Part shown: positions 4,782-54,964 of the stretch, piece by piece
How positions within the stretch are numbered: the first letter of the stretch is position 1
How the letters are laid out: every line of letters starts with the position of its first letter
Virus record (IMG/VR): IMGVR_UViG_3300042991_000131
Span: 12,821-76,820 of that record
Direction: 5' to 3' (one strand)
Length of the DNA: 64,000 nucleotides
DNA from: a virus
Made by a program: the position numbers and the translations under genes
The notes under the pieces: generated by a model
Database searches by the model: none
What the model was told of the DNA's origin: nothing
Seen by the model: the letters and a program-made list of their open reading frames with translations, nothing else

Positions 4782-5224
4782 AAAATAATCTTCGCCAGAT
4801 TGAATTAATCCTGTACCGGCTCAAGCGTGAGTACGGCCTGCCAATCGTTGTACGTAAGCAAACGCAAAACGACAACGATATTCAAACTGGCAAGATTACC
4901 TCTGCTTATGATGTGTACAAGATTAAGCGAGCGATCTGCTTACCTGCCGATTTAATGCGAACATTCATCTACGATTTAACTTATGTTGCTGCTAATAAAA
5001 ACTTCGCCTATGGTGGACATTTCGATAAATTAACTAAGGTATTTATTATTGATAAGAAAGATATTAAGGTCGATGGTGTCAAGGTAGTGATCGGGTTGGA
5101 TTGTCACATCGTCTATAAGGAACGTCGGTACGATATAGTCGCCGCCGACGAGACTGAGGACGAGACAAGCTACTTGATTAAGGCCAAGAACGTCGATCAG
5201 ACACCTATTATATTAGACCCGTGA
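4778..5224 (+). CDS. Head closure/neck protein
   Basis: Position; C-terminal IVY...RYDIV...E....YLI beta pattern. Confidence 0.6.
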   Translation: MKNNLRQIELILYRLKREYGLPIVVRKQTQNDNDIQTGKITSAYDVYKIKRAICLPADLMRTFIYDLTYVAANKNFAYGGHFDKLTKVFIIDKKDIKVDGVKVVIGLDCHIVYKERRYDIVAADETEDETSYLIKAKNVDQTPIILDP

Positions 5225-5230
5225 GGACAA

Positions 5231-5707
5231 ATGCCAGCTAACCACAATTGGCCACGTTGGATATTTGCCTCAGTTAGCAAGCACTTCAGCGACCGCCGCG
5301 GAACGCTTGCTTTCTATATAGAGGGTCAAGAGCGTAATGTGCCTGCTCCTAAGGATCTTTTAGAGTTAAGGCTTGACGGCCCGTACTTGACGGAGGTCAA
5401 TAAAGATTACTGGAGGCTTTACATCGAGGTTAGCGTTCTAGTACAGGCTATAAAAGACGACAGTGATTATCATAGGATACACAGTCACACAGGTCTTGTA
5501 GCCCAGGCATTTACGACGATACCAGTCTACAAGTTCGGCGATGGCGAGGATGATGACCAGACCCAACTTGGTTGCCTCGAACTGGTGCAAAATCTTGGTA
5601 AGCGAGAACGCATCCAAATTAATAACTTTGGTCAAATTGAACAATCGACTCCGTTGCTCCAATCAAGCGTAGAGGGACATTTTGAAATGTACCTCTCAAC
5701 CCAATAA
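5231..5707 (+). CDS. Tail terminator-like protein
   Basis: Size and position directly before major tail gene. Confidence 0.55.
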   Translation: MPANHNWPRWIFASVSKHFSDRRGTLAFYIEGQERNVPAPKDLLELRLDGPYLTEVNKDYWRLYIEVSVLVQAIKDDSDYHRIHSHTGLVAQAFTTIPVYKFGDGEDDDQTQLGCLELVQNLGKRERIQINNFGQIEQSTPLLQSSVEGHFEMYLSTQ

Positions 5708-33224: not shown

Positions 33225-33300
33225 GCTGTTGTAGCTCAGTCGGTAGAGCACCGCTTTTGTAAAGCGGGGGTCGCGTGTTCAAGTCACGCCGACAGCACCA
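33225..33300 (+). tRNA. tRNA-Thr(TGT)
   Basis: Full cloverleaf: GCTGTTG/CGACAGC, loop TTTGTAA, TTCAAGT, encoded CCA. Confidence 0.93.
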
Positions 33301-40602: not shown

Positions 40603-41208
40603 GTGACCATGACAACGGAAACTATGCCTGCAAATCAAAATCGCGACCCTGGTGAGAAAACTCATCAGGGTAGTTTTGTGTATATTGAAAAGATTATTGA
40701 AGGTTTTCCACATTATGCTATTGCAAACAACGGTAATCTAATAAGTCTAACTAGGTACGTTAAAAATGGCAACGGATTAAAACTAGTTACAAGAAAAGTA
40801 TTGGCAGGTAGCGTCGGTAAAGATGGTTACAAAATAGCTACAATAAGTAATGACACTGAATCGGTCACTGTTAGTCATCACAAACTAGTTGCGGAATATT
40901 TCTTACCCACTAAGCCGACTGATTTGCATGTTCCGAATCATAAAGACGGCATCAAAGTAAATAACCACATTAATAATCTTGAATGGATGACACGGAAGGA
41001 GAATACAGAACATGCTATAGTGGTTTTAGGATGGAAACCAGTTGGTGTTAAAGGGTATGCTAATCCTTTGTGCAAACGTTCTCCGGAACTAATACTTGAA
41101 GTTAAAAGACTAAAGGCATTCGGTATAAAGCAAATAGAAATTGCTAAGACAACTAAATTAAGTCAAACTATTATCTCTAGGATATTAACCGGAGTATACG
41201 ATGCCTAA
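40603..41208 (+). CDS. NUMOD4-HNH homing endonuclease
   Basis: IEGFPHYAIANNG, HKLVA, NHKDGIKVNNHINNLEW. Confidence 0.85.
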   Translation: MTMTTETMPANQNRDPGEKTHQGSFVYIEKIIEGFPHYAIANNGNLISLTRYVKNGNGLKLVTRKVLAGSVGKDGYKIATISNDTESVTVSHHKLVAEYFLPTKPTDLHVPNHKDGIKVNNHINNLEWMTRKENTEHAIVVLGWKPVGVKGYANPLCKRSPELILEVKRLKAFGIKQIEIAKTTKLSQTIISRILTGVYDA

Positions 41209-43726
41209 GTTCACTTACATAGATACTGAGACCTGCGGCCTATACGGCCCAATTGTGCTAATCCAATATGCTCACGACGATGGCGAGGTACAACTCTATT
41301 GCCCGTGGGAAAATCCTGTTATTGATACTTTGAAGCTATTTGAAAGCTTCTTGGAATCTGATTGTCTAGTATTTTTTAACGCGACTTTTGACTGGTTTCA
41401 TATAGTCCAGATGTATACAACGATGTGCTTATTAGACGGTGATAAGGAACCGGACATAGAGGAATATGCGATTGCAGAAGCTAAGGCACACTCTGGACCG
41501 TGTATAAAGCCTAAAAGTGCACTGGATCTGCTACTGCATGCACGAAAAGGGCCATACCAGTCAATGATGGAGCGCGAGGACGTAAGAATCAAGAAGATCC
41601 CGCGTGTGTTAGCTAGTCCGTTAATTGAAGAACTTAATCATCGTATCAAGTTGAAAGATACATATTTTGCGCGTAGGAAGGATCGCAAACAGCGGTGGAA
41701 AGCACATGATATCACGGATGATCTTGGTGATGTTGTGCCTGATTTCGTTGATCTTGTTCTGGCTTTTGCACCAAGTAGTGCCTTAAAAGCCCTGGCCCAA
41801 GATGCTCTCGGCTATGATCCAGATGAGATTACCGTCTTCAAGGATGTTGAGCTTGATCTAACGCTGCGACCTGTTGAGCATGGATTTGCTCCATTTGCTA
41901 TGAGTGTCGGTAAGCCGGGATTAGGTAACTGGAATAAGGCATGGCCGGCTGTAATCAAAGAGCATCTTACACACTGGCGTTTTAATAAAATGGCTCGTGA
42001 GTATGCTAAGGATGACGTTAAGTATACGCGCCAATTACATTATTTCTTCTCAGCACAGATACTTGGTTATTCGGATGACGAAGCTAGGACTATCGCTAAG
42101 AGCGAGAATCCCACTGAATTAATCATGGGTGGTGATGACGACTCGATCCTAGCCTGCATGGTTGCTGGTGTTAGGTGGCGCGGCTACGAGATTAATATTG
42201 AGAAACTGACAGAGCTACGTAAGAGTGCTGTTAAGACACAGGCCGAGTCAAAGTATAACTTCAATAGCGTGGACGTTACACGCAAGTATCTCGGTCAGGT
42301 TCTCACGCCGACCGAGTCTTTGGTTATGTCGCGTGATAACAAGATCAGTACAGAGGGTATAATCCTTGAAGAAATTGCTAAATGGAAGGTTGAGTCCATC
42401 TGCGAGGCATGTGGAGGCATTGGATGCAGTACATGCAGCAATGAAGGGACCATTAAAACAGATGAACGTCATCCCGCAGCCTTGCGGGCGCAAGAGATCC
42501 TTGATTATCGTCACGCCGGTAAGGAAATCGAGCTGTATGATAAGTTGCTTCTTGCGGGTCGATTTTTCGCTAGCTTTAATGTTATTGGCGCACTCTCGGG
42601 TCGAATGTCGGGTGCTGATGCACTTAATCCTCAAGGAATTAAGCGCACTAAAGAAGTACGCTCATGCTTCCCTCTTGCACCAGAAGGTTATCAACTCACT
42701 GGTGGAGATTTCGCTGGATTCGAAGTCTGCCTCGCGGACGCGGTCTACAACGACCCCGAGCTACGAGCCGACCTACTTACCCGTAGACCCTGTAAGAAAT
42801 GCGCCAAGACTACGAAGAAAGCACCCGGCACTGGTGAAGCGTTCGAGTGGGAAAATAACGGCGAGAAGATAGCCCTAGTCAAACATGCTAACTGTGGAGA
42901 CTGTGCCGGCACTGGATTAGAAGATACCAAGATCCACGCGCTATTCGGACAGTTCCTGTTTCCGCCAAATACTTACGATCAGATTTATGATAGTAAGGGA
43001 TTACCCGGCGATAAGGATCTATACTCACGCAGTAAGCAGGGTGTGTTCGCGCTGCTGTATGGTGGTGAAGCTTACACACTTGTTACTAGGACAGGCGTCC
43101 AAGAGGCTGTCGCTAATGAAGCCTATCAACGTTGGATCCAACGGTATCTAGTGTGGGGCGAAGCTCGTAAGAAGATTATCACCATGTTCTGCTCCATGAA
43201 GCAGACTGGCGGGCTAGGTAGCAAGGTCGAGTGGGAAGATCCTGCCGATTACATCGAGTCCATGCTTGGCTTCAAGCGTTACTTTACTCTTGAGAACATG
43301 ATCTGCAAGGCACTGTTCCAATTAGCTGAAGATCCGCCTAAGGAATGGTTCAAGTTCAAGATTAAGGTCGTACGTCGGGATCGCGAGCAGACGGTAGCCG
43401 GTGCCGTTCGTAGTGCGCTCTTCGGAGCAGCTTTCGCGATCCAAGCTGGTAACATGCGTGCTGCTGCTAATCACGTTATCCAGTCGTCTGGCGCGCAGAT
43501 TACCAAGCAGTTGCAGTGCAAGTTGTGGGAGATTCAACCTGCTGGCGTGCATGAATGGCTAGTCATTCCGATGAATATTCATGACGAAATCATGAACCCA
43601 TGCAAGCCGCATGTCGTGCCACTTATCCAGCCGATTATCGACGCGTTCATAACCAATCTGCGTACATACGTGCCTCTAGCTGGCATTGACTGGTCTAATA
43701 ACCTAAAGACATGGGCTGATAAATGA
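41201..43726 (+). CDS. Family A DNA polymerase with 3'-5' exonuclease
   Basis: DTET, FNATFD, SGRMS, DFAGFE (A), KQGVFALLYG (B), IHDEI (C). Confidence 0.88.
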   Translation: MPKFTYIDTETCGLYGPIVLIQYAHDDGEVQLYCPWENPVIDTLKLFESFLESDCLVFFNATFDWFHIVQMYTTMCLLDGDKEPDIEEYAIAEAKAHSGPCIKPKSALDLLLHARKGPYQSMMEREDVRIKKIPRVLASPLIEELNHRIKLKDTYFARRKDRKQRWKAHDITDDLGDVVPDFVDLVLAFAPSSALKALAQDALGYDPDEITVFKDVELDLTLRPVEHGFAPFAMSVGKPGLGNWNKAWPAVIKEHLTHWRFNKMAREYAKDDVKYTRQLHYFFSAQILGYSDDEARTIAKSENPTELIMGGDDDSILACMVAGVRWRGYEINIEKLTELRKSAVKTQAESKYNFNSVDVTRKYLGQVLTPTESLVMSRDNKISTEGIILEEIAKWKVESICEACGGIGCSTCSNEGTIKTDERHPAALRAQEILDYRHAGKEIELYDKLLLAGRFFASFNVIGALSGRMSGADALNPQGIKRTKEVRSCFPLAPEGYQLTGGDFAGFEVCLADAVYNDPELRADLLTRRPCKKCAKTTKKAPGTGEAFEWENNGEKIALVKHANCGDCAGTGLEDTKIHALFGQFLFPPNTYDQIYDSKGLPGDKDLYSRSKQGVFALLYGGEAYTLVTRTGVQEAVANEAYQRWIQRYLVWGEARKKIITMFCSMKQTGGLGSKVEWEDPADYIESMLGFKRYFTLENMICKALFQLAEDPPKEWFKFKIKVVRRDREQTVAGAVRSALFGAAFAIQAGNMRAAANHVIQSSGAQITKQLQCKLWEIQPAGVHEWLVIPMNIHDEIMNPCKPHVVPLIQPIIDAFITNLRTYVPLAGIDWSNNLKTWADK

Positions 43727-49957: not shown

Positions 49958-50173
49958 ATGACCGCATATGCATCAATCAACTTCAAGACGAAGAAGGCTC
50001 TCAAGGAGGCCGTCCAACGCGGTGAACGGATTACGGTCCGTTCAATCACACCCATGGGAACGAATCAGGTCACCAGCGGCAAGGAGGCCATCGCCGGTCC
50101 TTGGTATCCTGAACCGCACAAGTGGTACGCTCAGGTGGTAATTACGGACGGTAAGATCACGAGCGTCAAGTAA
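49958..50173 (+). CDS. Small early protein
   Basis: ATG 49958; strong codon bias. Confidence 0.65.
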   Translation: MTAYASINFKTKKALKEAVQRGERITVRSITPMGTNQVTSGKEAIAGPWYPEPHKWYAQVVITDGKITSVK

Positions 50174-50222
50174 TCACGAGAACCCAGCTACTATAGTGGT
50201 AGCTGGGTTCAAGTGTCAACCC
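50171..50222 (+). repeat. Early-region intergenic hairpin element, copy 1
   Basis: TAATCACGA-[GAACCCAGCTAC/GTAGCTGGGTTC]-AAGTGTCAACCC. Confidence 0.75.
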
Positions 50223-50233
50223 AAGGAACCCTT

Positions 50234-50434
50234 ATGAACGCAGCCTCCTGTTTCTCAGTCCATGCAGGTAGCATGGGCGACGGTGTCCCGCGCTGGATGG
50301 TACGCTCATCAATCCGCCAGGCCAAGACGCATGGCTGTAATCAGTTTCCGAGCGACGGACCACGTGGCAATCGGGCTGGTGTCGCCTACTGCTTCAAGTA
50401 CCGGGCCGCGCCGGCTGAGTACAGGAAGGACTGA
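50234..50434 (+). CDS. Small early protein
   Basis: AAGGA RBS, ATG 50234. Confidence 0.5.
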   Translation: MNAASCFSVHAGSMGDGVPRWMVRSSIRQAKTHGCNQFPSDGPRGNRAGVAYCFKYRAAPAEYRKD

Positions 50435-50437
50435 GCC

Positions 50438-50653
50438 ATGCATGCCAACGACTTCATCACGAAGCGTGAAAAGCTGTGCAAGGCTCGGCATCGCGAGATA
50501 ATCACGCAGGCTATATTCACCATGCAGATGCATCTGCTCTTTTGTGAGGCTCAGCTGAGCAAGGGCTGGGATGACGACGCCGAGAAAAGCGACGAGGTCT
50601 ACGAGACCTGGGTCGACCAGCTTGAGGCAGAGATAGAGGCGCTGAGCAAATAA
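50438..50653 (+). CDS. Small early protein
   Basis: RBS; acidic C-terminus. Confidence 0.55.
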   Translation: MHANDFITKREKLCKARHREIITQAIFTMQMHLLFCEAQLSKGWDDDAEKSDEVYETWVDQLEAEIEALSK

Positions 50654-50702
50654 CTTGTAGGCCAGGTCGGATTATCCGGCCTGGCCTTAAGTGTCGAACC
50701 CC
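50651..50702 (+). repeat. Early-region intergenic hairpin element, copy 2 (divergent)
   Basis: AGGCCAGGTCGGA-TTA-TCCGGCCTGGCCT-TAAGTGTCGAACCC. Confidence 0.6.
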
Positions 50703-50722
50703 AAAGCCGAAAGGGCTTACCC

Positions 50723-51073
50723 ATGTTCATCCTCACCCGTTCCACCAATCGCCCTGGCCTGACCGATCCGGTCGGAGTCGGTGGCCCCGTCCAGCTGAGT
50801 TCCTTCCTCAATAAGCTGCGCCCGCGTGATCGCAGCGCGATAATCGCCCTGGAGCCTGGCCAGCGCGCTCCCGCGATCCTCTGCCCGTTCGATGGCGACA
50901 TCGGCTTCCCGGTCGAGGTCTTCCGCTGCCCCGGTGGCAACGAGCATGACGCACACTTCAACGGTGCGCTCAAGGCTGCGCGTGAGGGTGTGCCTTCGCC
51001 ACTCAATAATCTCACGATGCGTCAGGCCAGGATCGTGAACAGCGCCTTGAGTGTTGCAAGTATGAAGCACTAA
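50723..51073 (+). CDS. Early protein
   Basis: Lies between two hairpin elements. Confidence 0.55.
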   Translation: MFILTRSTNRPGLTDPVGVGGPVQLSSFLNKLRPRDRSAIIALEPGQRAPAILCPFDGDIGFPVEVFRCPGGNEHDAHFNGALKAAREGVPSPLNNLTMRQARIVNSALSVASMKH

Positions 51074-51122
51074 TCACGAGAAGCCAGGCATCGTAGTGGT
51101 GCCTGGCTTCAAGTGTCAACCC
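51071..51122 (+). repeat. Early-region intergenic hairpin element, copy 3
   Basis: TAATCACGA-[GAAGCCAGGCATC/GGTGCCTGGCTTC]-AAGTGTCAACCC. Confidence 0.75.
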
Positions 51123-51136
51123 TAATAAGGCACCAT

Positions 51137-51454
51137 ATGCTCACCCCACTCAATGCCAAGTACGCCAAAGCCAAGCAGCCTGTAATCTGCTTTGAAGACT
51201 ACCAGTTCGGGCTTGGAACTGCAATACAGATCTATGATCGTGCTGAACGTGAGTGTGTCTGTACTGCTAGCGTGAATGTCGGTGGACTTGAATCTGGGCA
51301 CATTGCAATCAAAGACTATAGCGAGAATGAAGGCATACTTGCCTGGCTGATCGAGAACAAGATTGTTAGCAAACCAGTTCGGTTTGTTGGTTCCGGTTAC
51401 GTCGAGATTCCGATCTGCAAGTTACTTGTTGATTGTAAGGCTGGTATTGAATGA
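51137..51454 (+). CDS. DUF4313-like protein
   Basis: IKDYSENEG.L.WL.....V......SGYV motif. Confidence 0.55.
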   Translation: MLTPLNAKYAKAKQPVICFEDYQFGLGTAIQIYDRAERECVCTASVNVGGLESGHIAIKDYSENEGILAWLIENKIVSKPVRFVGSGYVEIPICKLLVDCKAGIE

Positions 51455-51786
51455 TTATCAAATGGCTAGGTGAGGCAATAACTGGCTTAGAGACTGGCGA
51501 GATACGCAGAGTAAGAACATATACAGGATTCAAGATACTGCTTGAGTTACGCGATGGCAGCGGCGATCTTGGCTGGTTCGATTTAAAGGATATCGAACCG
51601 GCTGATACCGATGCTAAGGTGCTGTTAACTAGATTAAAGCGTATTGCGCACTATAGACGCAAGATGTGCGATATGTGTAACGGTACTGGTCGTATTAGTA
51701 ATCACAAGTGTCCAGTGTGCTTCGCTGGTGAAGTAGTAGACCTTGAACAATTAAAGGTAGCCAATGAACATCCACTCTCCCGCTGA
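51451..51786 (+). CDS. Protein with DnaJ-type Zn finger
   Basis: CDMCNGTG...CPVC. Confidence 0.5.
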   Translation: MIIKWLGEAITGLETGEIRRVRTYTGFKILLELRDGSGDLGWFDLKDIEPADTDAKVLLTRLKRIAHYRRKMCDMCNGTGRISNHKCPVCFAGEVVDLEQLKVANEHPLSR

Positions 51787-52000
51787 AGTAATCGAAACGA
51801 TGTGTCTCTTGACACATGACGCCAATGATGTGTCAATTGAGGTTGAGTACGAGACGATTATCGTCAAGGCACAGAAGGTGAACAGTTTCTCGATGCGCTG
51901 GTCATATGAGGGCTACGGCAACGAGCGCGTGCGACAGATTGCTAAAGAGTATCACTTAGTGCTGATGAAAGCTCAGCGTGAAGAGAATAAGCCTTACTAA
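51764..52000 (+). CDS. Hypothetical protein
   Basis: Operon packing. Confidence 0.5.
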   Translation: MNIHSPAEVIETMCLLTHDANDVSIEVEYETIIVKAQKVNSFSMRWSYEGYGNERVRQIAKEYHLVLMKAQREENKPY

Positions 52001-52007
52001 AGGAAAC

Positions 52008-52344
52008 ATGACACAAACTATACAATCAATACGTGTGCTTACAACAGCATATAAGCTAGGCTACAGAATAACAAAAGCTGGTATAGCGTTGGGTCCTAAT
52101 TTTAATCTGCTCAGGCAAGAAACACCAGATTAAAGTACATAGACTACAAGCATATCAGAAGTATGGTGACAAAATATTTGAGAAATACTTAGAAGTTAGA
52201 CACAAGAATAGCAATAAAATGGACAATACTTGGGATAATATTTTATTAGGCACTCATAGTGCCAATATGATGGATGTACCTAGAGAAGTTAGAGTTGAGC
52301 GTGCAATTAATGCCAATAATCTAAAATTGGCAACTCCGTACTGA
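52008..52344 (+). pseudogene. Frameshifted HNH endonuclease
   Basis: 41-aa ORF ending TAA, then +1 frame VHRLQAYQKYGDKIF...VRHKNSNKMDN.WDNI homologous to 24838-25359. Confidence 0.75.
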
Positions 52345-52454
52345 TGAGTCCTGAGTGGACGAAACATGGTTAGCTTGAACCGAGTGGTGCGTTACTAAAG
52401 GGTGAAACCCTTTGACCCTCACCTAAATAGCTAATCATGTATACGGCAGAGAGT
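52333..52454 (+). ncRNA. Type I hammerhead ribozyme
   Basis: Stem I CCGTA/TACGG, CTGATGA core, stem II GTCC/GGAC, GAAA, 11-bp stem III, GUA cleavage triplet ending 52441. Confidence 0.9.
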
Positions 52455-53146
52455 AATCGATGGTGAACGTGCTATAAGCACCGGATGGCCTCCCTGGCTG
52501 TTCACTGACCAAGATTACTCGAAGCAAAGTGGCCATAAGCCAGCCACTGAAAACATATAGGCATAGGATTAAGGCAGCAGGATCAAAGACGTAGTGCCGG
52601 AACAAGGGTACAAGATACGGGAAACAAGTTGGGACAATCCGAAAGGAGGGAGCCTGCTGAGTTACCGGTTGCCTGTGACGCTACATAATCTTTGGGAACA
52701 TACGGTTGGCTTAGCCAACAAACCGAAGCCGGTGACATGGCTGCGGTGCTGCTGATTGCTGGGAACGGTGTAGCTGACGCTACACGCCTGAGACCCTATC
52801 CGGCTTAGTCACCCAATCAGTGACCGGACAAATATGGGATACGAGCGTCAACTCGCGGCCCTAGATAATAGAGAAGATGGTAGGACCTACTATCTAATCC
52901 ATCAGTGGGGACGCGCCGATAGTCGCAGGCCCACATTAATCTCTAAGGTGCTAGTAAGTATATTGTGGAAGCTGTAATCGCGATTCCCTTAGGTGGAGCA
53001 GCGACCAGTCAGCGGACTTCTGGCCTAGTACCTGACAAGCTAATCGGCCGCACGGTTGGCCTCTGTTAATGAGCGGAAGGTGTACCGGATGTTTGCCGTG
53101 TCCGGAACCATAGACAGGATTAGGGCAACCTGATTCAACGGCGTTT
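52451..53146 (+). ncRNA. Candidate large structured ncRNA (~700 nt)
   Basis: No ORF of 60 aa or more; many nested helices, GNRA loops, two possible pseudoknots; between ribozyme and tRNA array. Confidence 0.6.
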
Positions 53147-53229
53147 CGGGGTATGTTGGAATAGCAGACAAAACTGATTTAAAATCAGTCGGCAGAAATG
53201 CCATCCGAGTGCAAGTCTCGGTACCCCGA
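53147..53229 (+). tRNA. tRNA-Leu(TAA)
   Basis: CGGGGTA/TACCCCG, loop TTTAAAA, long variable arm, no encoded CCA. Confidence 0.85.
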
Positions 53230-53234
53230 TTAAT

Positions 53235-53318
53235 GCCTGTATGGCGTAACTAGCAGCCGCGATAGCTTTAGGAGCTATTGTCCGTAAGGACGTGTCAGTG
53301 CAAGTCTGACTACAGGTA
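53235..53318 (+). tRNA. tRNA-Leu(TAG)
   Basis: GCCTGTA/TACAGGT, loop TTTAGGA, long variable arm. Confidence 0.85.
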
Positions 53319-53325
53319 ATCTTTT

Positions 53326-53400
53326 GGGCCGTTCGTACAACGGTTAGTACACGGGTCTTATAAGCCTGTTACGATTGTTCGACTCAATCACGGCCTACCA
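53326..53400 (+). tRNA. tRNA-Ile(TAT)
   Basis: GGGCCGT/ACGGCCT, loop CTTATAA, TTCGACT, encoded CCA. Confidence 0.85.
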
Positions 53401-53411
53401 CAAGGATAATC

Positions 53412-53879
53412 ATGGCAGTCTGGAGACAAACAACACTGGTAGATTATTTAGAAGTTAGCGACGAGGGTGGACTTAGAAACAAGCACACCAAGTTACCATA
53501 TGAACTGTCTATGACTAAGAGCGGATACTACAGTATCCACGTGACAGCACATGAGAAATATTTCCTGCACGTGCTTATAGCCGCAGCTTTCTTAGGTCCG
53601 GCAAACGGATTAGAGGTTGATCATAAGGATAGAAATAAGCGCAATAATCGGCTGACTAATCTTTGGTATAGAACTCACGCTCAGAATTGTCAGAATAGAA
53701 TTAGCAATAATAAGGGCGTATTAAATAATACTACAAGGTTAACTGAGAATGACGTTAAAGAGATTAGAAGGCAGTGCCTATTTGGCATTACTTATGCAGA
53801 ATTAGGTAGGAAGTACAAAATGCACCCTGATTCAGTCAGAAGTGCAGCAGTCGGTAAAACTTGGTCACATATTAAGTAA
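53412..53879 (+). CDS. HNH homing endonuclease with C-terminal HTH
   Basis: LHVLIA.AF...VDHKDRNKRNNRLTNL. Confidence 0.85.
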   Translation: MAVWRQTTLVDYLEVSDEGGLRNKHTKLPYELSMTKSGYYSIHVTAHEKYFLHVLIAAAFLGPANGLEVDHKDRNKRNNRLTNLWYRTHAQNCQNRISNNKGVLNNTTRLTENDVKEIRRQCLFGITYAELGRKYKMHPDSVRSAAVGKTWSHIK

Positions 53880-53925
53880 CCAGCAGCTAATTGCTGCATA
53901 ACGCCGTAAGGCACTAGGATAGAAA

Positions 53926-54474
53926 ATGTCGATTAACCCATCACGCGAACAGACCCGTCTGAACAAGACGATCCAGCAGATCAAGGACACGGAAAAGGAA
54001 GTGGCCAGCCTCACTTCCAAGGCGACCAACATCCGCGAGCACTTCCACGCGCCCACCGCGACCCTCAACACGAACCTGGCCAAGATCGACGCCCTCGTCG
54101 TCGCTCGCCAGGACGCGCTGCTGCGTCTGGAGGCCAACGCCTATCCCGATGACGATAATCGTCAGATGGACGCGGCCCAGGTCAAGGCTGCCGAAGAGTC
54201 GATCAAGAGGCTGGCCGAGGAAAACAGCTGCATTCAGGGCGAACTGAATACCCTGCACGCCACCTTCGACGCCCAGCTCGCCGAGCTGATGCATGCCTCG
54301 GGCATCCACGACCTGGCCATCTGTGCGCTCCTGGTCACCAAGCAGCAGCAGGAGGCCGCACTCCAGAGGCAGGAGGCCGATTACCCGGTGAAGCTGAAGC
54401 GCCACCTGAACCGTTGCCGCCGTCAGGGCATCGCCGATGCGCGGCTCAGCGCGCCGAAGAAGCGTGTCGCGTGA
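53926..54474 (+). CDS. Coiled-coil early protein
   Basis: GC3-rich helical ORF with RBS. Confidence 0.65.
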   Translation: MSINPSREQTRLNKTIQQIKDTEKEVASLTSKATNIREHFHAPTATLNTNLAKIDALVVARQDALLRLEANAYPDDDNRQMDAAQVKAAEESIKRLAEENSCIQGELNTLHATFDAQLAELMHASGIHDLAICALLVTKQQQEAALQRQEADYPVKLKRHLNRCRRQGIADARLSAPKKRVA

Positions 54475-54683
54475 ACCTCTACAAGACACATGGCAAGGGA
54501 GCAGCCATGGGTTCGCGCTGCGTAATCGCGGCGCCGACCGAACTCCGGGCCAAACAGATCCACTATCTGGAGACTGGCTACATCTGCGAGCGGATCGAGT
54601 GCGTACAGACGGAACTGGAGGCCAGCATCGCTGGTAATCCGCTGTCTGAATACTGCTTCTTCATCTGGAACGGGGACTACTGA
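54471..54683 (+). CDS. Hypothetical protein
   Basis: GTGA coupling. Confidence 0.5.
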   Translation: MNLYKTHGKGAAMGSRCVIAAPTELRAKQIHYLETGYICERIECVQTELEASIAGNPLSEYCFFIWNGDY

Positions 54684-54964
54684 TGCAGCCACTTATTGAT
54701 GACTCTACGGTAGCCGAGGTACTGATCCTGTCTGGCTACCGTAGGGTCAGCAATAAGTTCAAGACTGTTGCCAGAGTCGATAGGCCGGGTCCATGCAAAC
54801 TAGGTTCCGATTACTACCGCAGAGTCAACAGTCGTGATGCAGTCACGGTATCGGCAAATGTATACAACCTCATGCGCAATTGCCGAGACTGTGATTACTG
54901 TCCGCTACATCCTTTAGTTAAGGTACTCCATGTTAATCAAGTTATCAAAAATACGCGATCATAA
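54683..54964 (+). CDS. Hypothetical protein
   Basis: TGATG coupling. Confidence 0.5.
   Translation: MQPLIDDSTVAEVLILSGYRRVSNKFKTVARVDRPGPCKLGSDYYRRVNSRDAVTVSANVYNLMRNCRDCDYCPLHPLVKVLHVNQVIKNTRS

Follow-up and report, generated by a model that had tools for sequence, protein, structure and literature searches.

The IMG/VR virus record IMGVR_UViG_3300042991_000131 (76,820 bases, estimated completeness 83%) carries phage genes for tail, capsid and replication, mostly on the + strand. The analysed stretch of 64,000 nucleotides (nt) is part of this record; it is referred to here as the window, and all coordinates are window positions. Its longest gap free of open reading frames (ORFs, at least 60 amino acids, aa) extends from 52001 to 53411 and measures 1411 nt, compared to 393 nt for the next longest. 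The order of features on the + strand is a frameshifted HNH gene, a hammerhead ribozyme, a non-coding stretch of about 704 nt, three tRNAs and a second HNH gene. The non-coding stretch, at 52442-53145 on the + strand, is a candidate large structured non-coding RNA, as judged from the lack of an ORF, the lack of an Rfam match, its folding and its variants in related sequences. On balance, it is probably a functional structured RNA that would constitute a new candidate class of phage tRNA-island RNAs, with its 5' end generated by the hammerhead and its 3' end by RNase P.

A preliminary description of this DNA had placed an ornate RNA at 52560-53146. This interval does contain the larger part of the RNA, but its 5' boundary is arbitrary; the most likely start is the hammerhead cleavage site at 52442, about 120 nt before 52560, while the 3' boundary falls exactly at the 5' end of tRNA-Leu(UAA). 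A ribozyme cut site and a tRNA 5' end thus provide the large RNA with defined, predicted processing sites. Its non-coding nature was confirmed, as 52442-53145 lacks an ORF and lies inside the longest ORF-free gap of the window. Every frame is interrupted, five of them by all three kinds of stop codon and the remaining one by two kinds, so that no single stop reassignment opens an ORF, and coding under a reassigned stop codon was rejected. The small ORFs of the stretch match no Pfam or PHROG family. Internal repeats or a domain duplication within the RNA were considered and dropped.

The RNA could not be assigned to a family in the preliminary description, and the Rfam scan proposed there led to the same result. 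At gathering thresholds, Rfam 15 detects only tRNAs in the whole window. With lax filters, E-values up to 10 and slices of 1701 and 851 nt, its 4227 families yielded, beyond the tRNAs, a sub-threshold hammerhead core and two meaningless fragments of long non-coding RNAs. GOLLD, which should be included among these families, gave no match at E-values up to 10; group I and group II introns and RNase P RNA were likewise not matched in Rfam, and transfer-messenger RNA was found neither by Rfam nor by ARAGORN. The ROOL model (RF03087), run alone, produced a single first-look candidate in the phage record that fell short of E 10, and since control genomes gave no signal either, this search is weak. 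As far as the Rfam models reach, the large RNA lies outside the described families.

The type I hammerhead ribozyme directly preceding the large RNA spans 52333-52454 on the + strand (core 52336-52446) and was identified by sequence reading, a descriptor search and folding. Stem I consists of 5 base pairs (bp) between CCGUA (52336-40) and UACGG (52442-46), which ACU(C)/(G)AGU may extend around a bulge. The core contains CUGAUGA (52341-47), GAAA (52361-64), U52440 and A52441 as H17. Stem II is formed by 4 bp between GUCC (52348-51) and GGAC (52357-60), closed by the loop UGAGU, while the 11 bp of stem III, A+CAUGGUUAGC (52364-74) with GCUAAUCAUG+U (52430-40), enclose a 55-nt insert with a hairpin of its own. 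Cleavage is predicted within GUAU, after the GUA, between 52441 and 52442. All positions of the type I consensus core (C3 U4 G5 A6 N7 G8 A9, G12 A13 A14, A15.1-U16.1 and H17; Perreault et al. 2011, PMC3088659) are present. A loose hammerhead descriptor matches once in the window, versus 0.0067 matches per dinucleotide shuffle, and the unconstrained minimum-energy fold of 52325-52460 yields the three-stem hammerhead topology, with stems II and III closed and stem I open. Rfam Hammerhead_1 (RF00163) gave no match at E-values up to 10, so the gathering threshold was not reached, and Hammerhead_3 matches the core alone at a sub-threshold 14.8 bits; the likely reason why the type I model fails is the 55-nt insert in stem III. 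There is little doubt that the motif is a genuine ribozyme.

The full core, the GUCC/GGAC stem II, the open stem I and the phage intergenic setting are shared with type I hammerheads of phages and bacteria (RF00163, PMC3088659). The present hammerhead differs from these in the structured insert in stem III, in the overlap of its core with the stop codon of the HNH gene, and in its predicted 3' cleavage product, which is a large non-coding RNA. A CTGATGA at 51962 was rejected as a second hammerhead, and a 16-nt identity between the hammerhead core and G007 lies inside a coding gene there and is a chance match.

Hammerhead cores with a GUCC/GGAC stem II are very common in phage contigs, as a scan of IMG/VR returned at least 119 loci (L212-L330). 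Among the matches listed, tRNA genes lie no further than about 2 kb from 18 of 132 cores, in every case on the hammerhead strand, and several cores lie inside long tRNA arrays (e.g., L242, L274, L278, L303 and L318); hammerheads in phage tRNA transcription units are therefore recurrent. No similarity to the large RNA was found downstream of the 119 loci among the matches listed, and five loci with long gaps contain no known large RNA. One of the loci, on a 92.7-kb phage contig (L270, 1892-6179), packs five hammerhead cores into 4.3 kb of a single strand. A 139.7-kb viral contig (L344) has a hammerhead-like core (CUGAUGAGUCCC...GGAAAC) at about 5050-5283 on the - strand, about 150 nt upstream of a tandem repeat of GGAGTTCCTCTTACA. 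A related arrangement is known from gut phages, in which theta (hepatitis delta virus-like) ribozymes beside tRNAs were proposed to cut the 3' trailers of the tRNAs (PMC10879173). In both cases a small self-cleaving ribozyme resides in a phage tRNA transcription unit, and for the theta ribozymes it was proposed to substitute for a host nuclease in end formation. The hammerhead belongs, however, to another ribozyme class; some 700 nt separate it from the first tRNA downstream, and the 5' end that it would generate is that of a different RNA.

The helices of the large RNA had been read by eye in the preliminary description, and all quoted segments proved to be present where they were reported and fully complementary when G-U pairs are included. 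This applies to helix H1 (52583-89/52689-95, 7 of 7 positions), helix H2 (52591-96/52679-84, 6 of 6) and the crossing pair 52575-81/52653-59 (7 of 7), and further downstream to 52751-58/52814-21 (8 of 8), its crossing partner 52731-36/52808-13 (6 of 6) and 52947-54/53025-32 (8 of 8). Local hairpins starting at 52638, 52705, 52768, 52875, 53085 and 53118 were also confirmed. Partition-function analysis of the 704-nt RNA gives most of the nested helices probabilities of 0.78-1.00. The highest values are reached by the 53118 hairpin (1.00), by GUGUAGC-UGAC-GCUACAC at 52768-52785 (+ strand, 0.99) and by AGAUGGUAG-GAC-CUACUAUCU at 52875-52895 (+ strand, 0.97), followed by 52947/53025 (0.95), 52751/52814 (0.86), TAGAGA/TCTCTA (0.83) and GUUGGC-UUA-GCCAAC at 52705-52719 (+ strand, 0.78). 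The proposed CCGGATG/TGTCCGG hairpin (53085/53099) is complementary but has a probability of 0.00, since the fold favours a long-range helix between 52824-30 and 53099-105.

H1 and H2 on the one hand and the crossing pair 52575/52653 on the other are mutually exclusive in a nested fold. The full-length fold takes 52575/52653, while the minimum of the isolated segment 52583-52695 consists of H1 and H2, and the reading by eye had included both. The two proposed pseudoknots are putative and consist of sequence complementarity. The 5' third contains hairpins at 52450-52511 and 52527-52549. As a speculative possibility, GAGUAAUC (52450-57) may either extend stem I of the hammerhead or pair with GAUUACUC (52504-11), which would allow refolding after cleavage.

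Folding energies point to the + strand as the structured one, in line with the preliminary description. For the 587-nt stretch 52560-53146, the z-score is -1.99 on the + strand and -0.93 on the - strand. For the 704-nt unit, it is -3.46 with 20 shuffles and -2.85 with 60 shuffles on the + strand, versus -0.50 for the reverse complement, for which 17 of 60 shuffles fold as well. Folding no better than shuffled controls had been named beforehand as the outcome that would speak against a structured RNA; on the + strand, none of the 60 shuffles folded as well. For twelve coding stretches of 704 nt, taken as controls from elsewhere in the window, the z-scores lie between +0.81 and -2.65, with a mean of about -1.1, which makes the large RNA the most extreme of the 13 stretches by a small margin. 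In 150-nt windows across 52300-53350, the + strand is consistently negative, although not beyond several intergenic hairpins elsewhere. The energy evidence is moderate and would not carry the claim of a large RNA alone. Stronger local signals than anywhere in the large RNA, with + strand z-scores of -4 to -6, were observed in the 150-nt windows 50125-50274, 50575-50799, 51025-51174, 51550-51699 and 54625-54849, which fall between or within small early genes.

An index search identified 22 public runs from 13 studies of caves, wastewater and freshwater sediment that hold part of the stretch; only one covers it completely, and this is probably the sample from which the record came. The contigs of four runs were compared over 51500-54000, and the variants were rebuilt from pieces of the window and short inserts; parts of the stretch that are uncovered in single runs were excluded as evidence. 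X4 is a DNA run and X13 a metatranscriptome of the same sample, so that the variants from X2, X6 and X4/X13 are short contigs of three samples. In these relatives, which come from wastewater and sediment runs, H1 and three hairpins proposed by the preliminary description are kept while their sequence or length changes.

The first of these changes concerns an optional subdomain closed by H1 and H2 (52583-52695, + strand), recognised from contig joints in the relatives and from the isolated fold. In X2, 52584 is joined to 52694 with CAGAGAAACCTG in between, and in X6, 52586 is joined to 52692 with GGAAAC in between. The 105-109 nt inside H1 are therefore absent, and when rebuilt, either variant forms a hairpin of 5 bp from the H1 strands, with a GAAA tetraloop in X6 and an AGAAAC loop in X2. 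The X2 variant also carries C-G in place of A85-U93 of the window in H1. That two different deletions have their ends on one helix speaks in favour of H1 and of a subdomain that is modular and optional.

The second example is the hairpin at 52875, which occurs in three sequences. In one X2 lineage it reads GAUGACC-UAUA-GGUCAUC; the outer pairs are retained, one G-U is changed to G-C and three inner pairs are changed on both sides. In the second X2 lineage, a 31-nt hairpin occupies the place of 52875-95. The hairpin at 52768 reads GUGUAG-UCAC-CUACAC in X13 and X4, one C-G pair being lost from both strands and the loop altered, and the loop of the 52705 hairpin has an extra G after 52713 in X4 and X6. 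Single-base or short insertions in the relatives fall in hairpin loops.

Conservation is unevenly distributed along the large RNA. The 5' third varies between the relatives, while hardly any change is seen in the 3' part (about 52927-53089): it shows no difference in X6, and pieces reaching beyond it differ at 2 of 171 nt in X2 and 4 of 312 nt in X4. Pieces of neighbouring genes differ by 3-14%. The X13 metatranscriptome contigs cover only 52564-52968, whereas the X4 DNA contigs cover 52023-53713 including the flanks; this may be a hint of an accumulating transcript.

The hammerhead is also variable. In X4, 42 nt stand in place of 87 nt (52352-52438), which comprise the loop and 3' strand of stem II, the GAAA, and stem III for the most part, including its insert; the 5' core still aligns up to 52351, and the cut site and stem I (52439-52459) show no difference. 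In the second X2 lineage, the hairpin inside the stem III insert is still present, though its tip is smaller.

Searches beyond these runs did not provide further relatives. By blastn, no usable homologue was found in 50,697 phage records or 72,556 plasmids. The tRNA neighbourhoods of 44 IMG/VR phages related by DNA polymerase contain no long ORF-free gap. The flanking HNH protein retrieved only distant, unrelated loci in IMG/VR, and the upstream 111-aa protein had no match there. In IMG/VR, exact searches for four words taken from the RNA or the hammerhead returned only chance matches; one G+C-rich 18-mer gave at least 120 chance matches in JGI metagenomes, none of them homologous among the matches listed, and a 24-mer had no match in GTDB genomes. 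Four metagenome-assembled genomes (MAGs) of Planctomycetota and a sample of 401 Planctomycetota genomes contain no homologue. A spurious 47-aa ORF inside the large RNA, used as a query, found no relative, while a gene neighbouring it has one relative in Logan.

Both sides of the island are marked by homing-endonuclease genes. The upstream HNH gene (52008-52344, + strand), recognised by three-frame translation and Pfam HNH_3, is frameshifted: an N-terminal piece is encoded at 52008-52130, and the HNH_3 domain (E 8.7e-10, 38.5 bits versus a cut-off of 24.8) in another frame that is open at 52087-52341, has its sole ATG at 52219 and lacks a usable start. The gene is either a pseudogene or requires frameshifting for its expression, and its TGA stop codon (52342-44) lies inside the CUGAUGA box of the hammerhead. 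It is weakly similar to the downstream HNH gene, which is intact (53412-53879, + strand, 155 aa; PHROG phrog_59, E 3.5e-25; Pfam HNH_3, E 3.3e-13) and closes the island. Between the large RNA and this gene, ARAGORN and Rfam identify three + strand tRNAs: tRNA-Leu with anticodon UAA (53146-53230, 45.7 bits), tRNA-Leu with anticodon UAG (53234-53319, 41.9 bits) and tRNA-Ile with anticodon UAU (53326-53400, 56.9 bits). Together with tRNA-Thr(UGU), the phage has four tRNAs in the window (33225-33300 and 53146-53400), all with U as first anticodon base, and the codons read, ACA, UUA, CUA and AUA, end in A. Such tRNAs would suit a phage of about 48% G+C in a host richer in G+C.

The host of this uncultured tailed phage is likely to be a planctomycete. 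The nearest relatives of the phage DNA polymerase share 39-55% identity and come from uncultured phages, of which several carry a provirus flag; full-length relatives at 42-43% identity are present in MAG contigs of 0.48 and 1.07 Mb (L331 and L332). These MAGs are assigned to Thermoguttaceae and Planctomycetaceae, and the polymerase loci in them are prophage-like, which suggests the planctomycete host. The 841-aa polymerase (41201-43726) has no tblastn match at E 1e-5 among the 50,697 deposited phage genomes of INPHARED, indicating a phage group without a cultured representative in that collection.

Combining these data, a pathway can be proposed for the large RNA. It would be transcribed with the upstream genes as a long precursor, because the island genes share one orientation and no promoter or terminator was evident on the + strand within the island. 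The hammerhead would then cut itself co-transcriptionally after A52441, as its core and fold suggest, leaving a 5'-OH at U52442. This step would detach the large RNA from the HNH message, which would retain a cyclic phosphate behind the long stem III. By analogy to general tRNA maturation, host RNase P would cut at the 5' end of tRNA-Leu and produce a 3'-OH at 53145. The released RNA would fold into several domains, namely the variable 5' part with its optional subdomain and the nearly invariant 3' part, and may be produced during infection as a stable structured RNA with a role in trans, an assumption also made for GOLLD and ROOL.

Several observations weigh against a functional RNA of this kind. 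No homologue was retrieved beyond a handful of near-identical relatives, and nhmmer and BLAST found no such element in the 44 polymerase-related IMG/VR phages. The folding energy is only moderately unusual, with one of 12 coding controls at z -2.65, and the 150-nt windows inside the large RNA span z -0.05 to -2.8. With about ten hairpin loops available, a six-base match of one loop to a site no more than about 100 nt away is not unusual. The variant evidence, drawn from short contigs of three samples, covers local hairpins and not the long-range helices or pseudoknots, and the contigs show neither the ends nor the abundance of the RNA. The island is mosaic, and the high conservation of the 3' part may partly reflect recent block exchange instead of selection on the RNA. 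Finally, one X2 wastewater contig joins 51998 to 52357, so that the HNH gene and the hammerhead's 5' half are both missing; the remaining RNA is retained, and the upstream ORF 51764-52000 would be extended by a few codons. The ribozyme is therefore either not required in every lineage, or the X2 copy is defective.

As a first alternative, the stretch would be a structured but functionless spacer or leader of the tRNA operon, i.e., 700 nt of tolerated filler whose hairpins at most affect RNA stability. The hammerhead would then separate the tRNA precursor from the upstream message, or give the HNH message a protected 3' end. The frequent occurrence of phage hammerheads in or beside tRNA arrays that lack an adjoining large RNA fits such a spacer, as do the restriction of the variant support to local hairpins, a folding energy only moderately below that of coding controls, and the relative without half of the hammerhead. 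A filler of 700 nt would nevertheless be exceptional in a genome stretch whose next longest ORF-free gap is 393 nt; three lineages share an almost unchanged 3' part in spite of diverging flanks, hairpins survive complete sequence replacement, and metatranscriptome contigs cover just the large-RNA stretch. A functionless spacer is considered rather unlikely.

Decayed DNA provides a second explanation, in which dead genes or mobile endonuclease cassettes would have left this stretch behind in a tRNA island prone to recombination, with helices as in any 700 nt of about 50% G+C. A broken HNH gene directly upstream and an intact one downstream, as well as the mosaic structure of the island between relatives, are what such a history would leave behind. 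A search by eye for complements of 6-8 nt in 600 nt always yields some, and one coding control reaches z -2.65. The ORFs, however, carry no trace of a protein family, no degenerate tRNA copy was detected down to E 10, and folding is asymmetric between the strands. Decaying DNA should diverge faster than its coding flanks, yet the 3' part is the best conserved, and the deletion end points of two independent variants coincide exactly with a helix, where a hairpin capped by a GAAA or AGAAAC loop remains. Decay appears distinctly unlikely. It is very improbable that one of the known large classes (ROOL, GOLLD, a group I/II intron remnant or similar) includes the RNA as a strongly divergent member beyond the reach of the Rfam models: Planctomycetota hosts are poorly represented in seed alignments, but none of the 4227 families matched in either slice even at E 10 with lax filters, the only ROOL candidate fell short of that value, there is no splice-site context, and the tRNAs and flanking genes are intact without the large RNA. 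The size range and genomic setting that speak for such a relationship are those of ROOL and GOLLD (PMC12286853).

ROOL and GOLLD are RNAs of 600-800 nt from phages and prophages, often encoded near tRNA islands, that assemble into cage-like oligomers and whose function is unknown (PMC12286853). The favoured interpretation of 52442-53145 as a functional RNA shares several features with them: about 704 nt of ORF-free RNA in phage DNA directly upstream of three tRNAs, a multi-domain fold with GNRA loops and, as in GOLLD, stronger conservation in the 3' part than in the 5' part. In contrast, the large RNA matches neither of them in Rfam by sequence or structure, it is so far found only in a narrow group of relatives, and its 5' end would be set by a hammerhead, for which a limited literature search found no description in ROOL or GOLLD. 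The large RNA is accordingly presented as a new candidate class of the ROOL/GOLLD kind, marked by a ribozyme-defined 5' end. A more far-reaching analogy would make it a third, unrelated class of giant phage RNA that uses its own ribozyme for the 5' end and a tRNA as 3' signal, and that forms a higher-order RNA-only particle during infection of planctomycetes; this is a long shot at present. Non-tRNA species in phage tRNA clusters have a precedent in the stable RNAs C and D of phage T4, RNAs of unknown function that are co-transcribed with the tRNAs and cut from the same precursor. Homing endonuclease genes are found in that region too, but RNAs C and D are much shorter, at about 120-140 nt, and are not known to involve a ribozyme.

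GOLLD and ROOL were recently shown to form RNA-only cages. The predicted ends of the large RNA, a ribozyme cut and an RNase P cut, are unusually well defined, and an exact construct can therefore be designed from the sequence. If the proposed interpretation is true, an unrelated RNA would occupy the same setting as GOLLD and ROOL, and what recurs would be the setting instead of one particular fold, pointing to a role connected with tRNA islands or with translation in infected cells. Phage hammerheads would then gain a concrete job, the release of a non-coding RNA from a polycistronic transcript.

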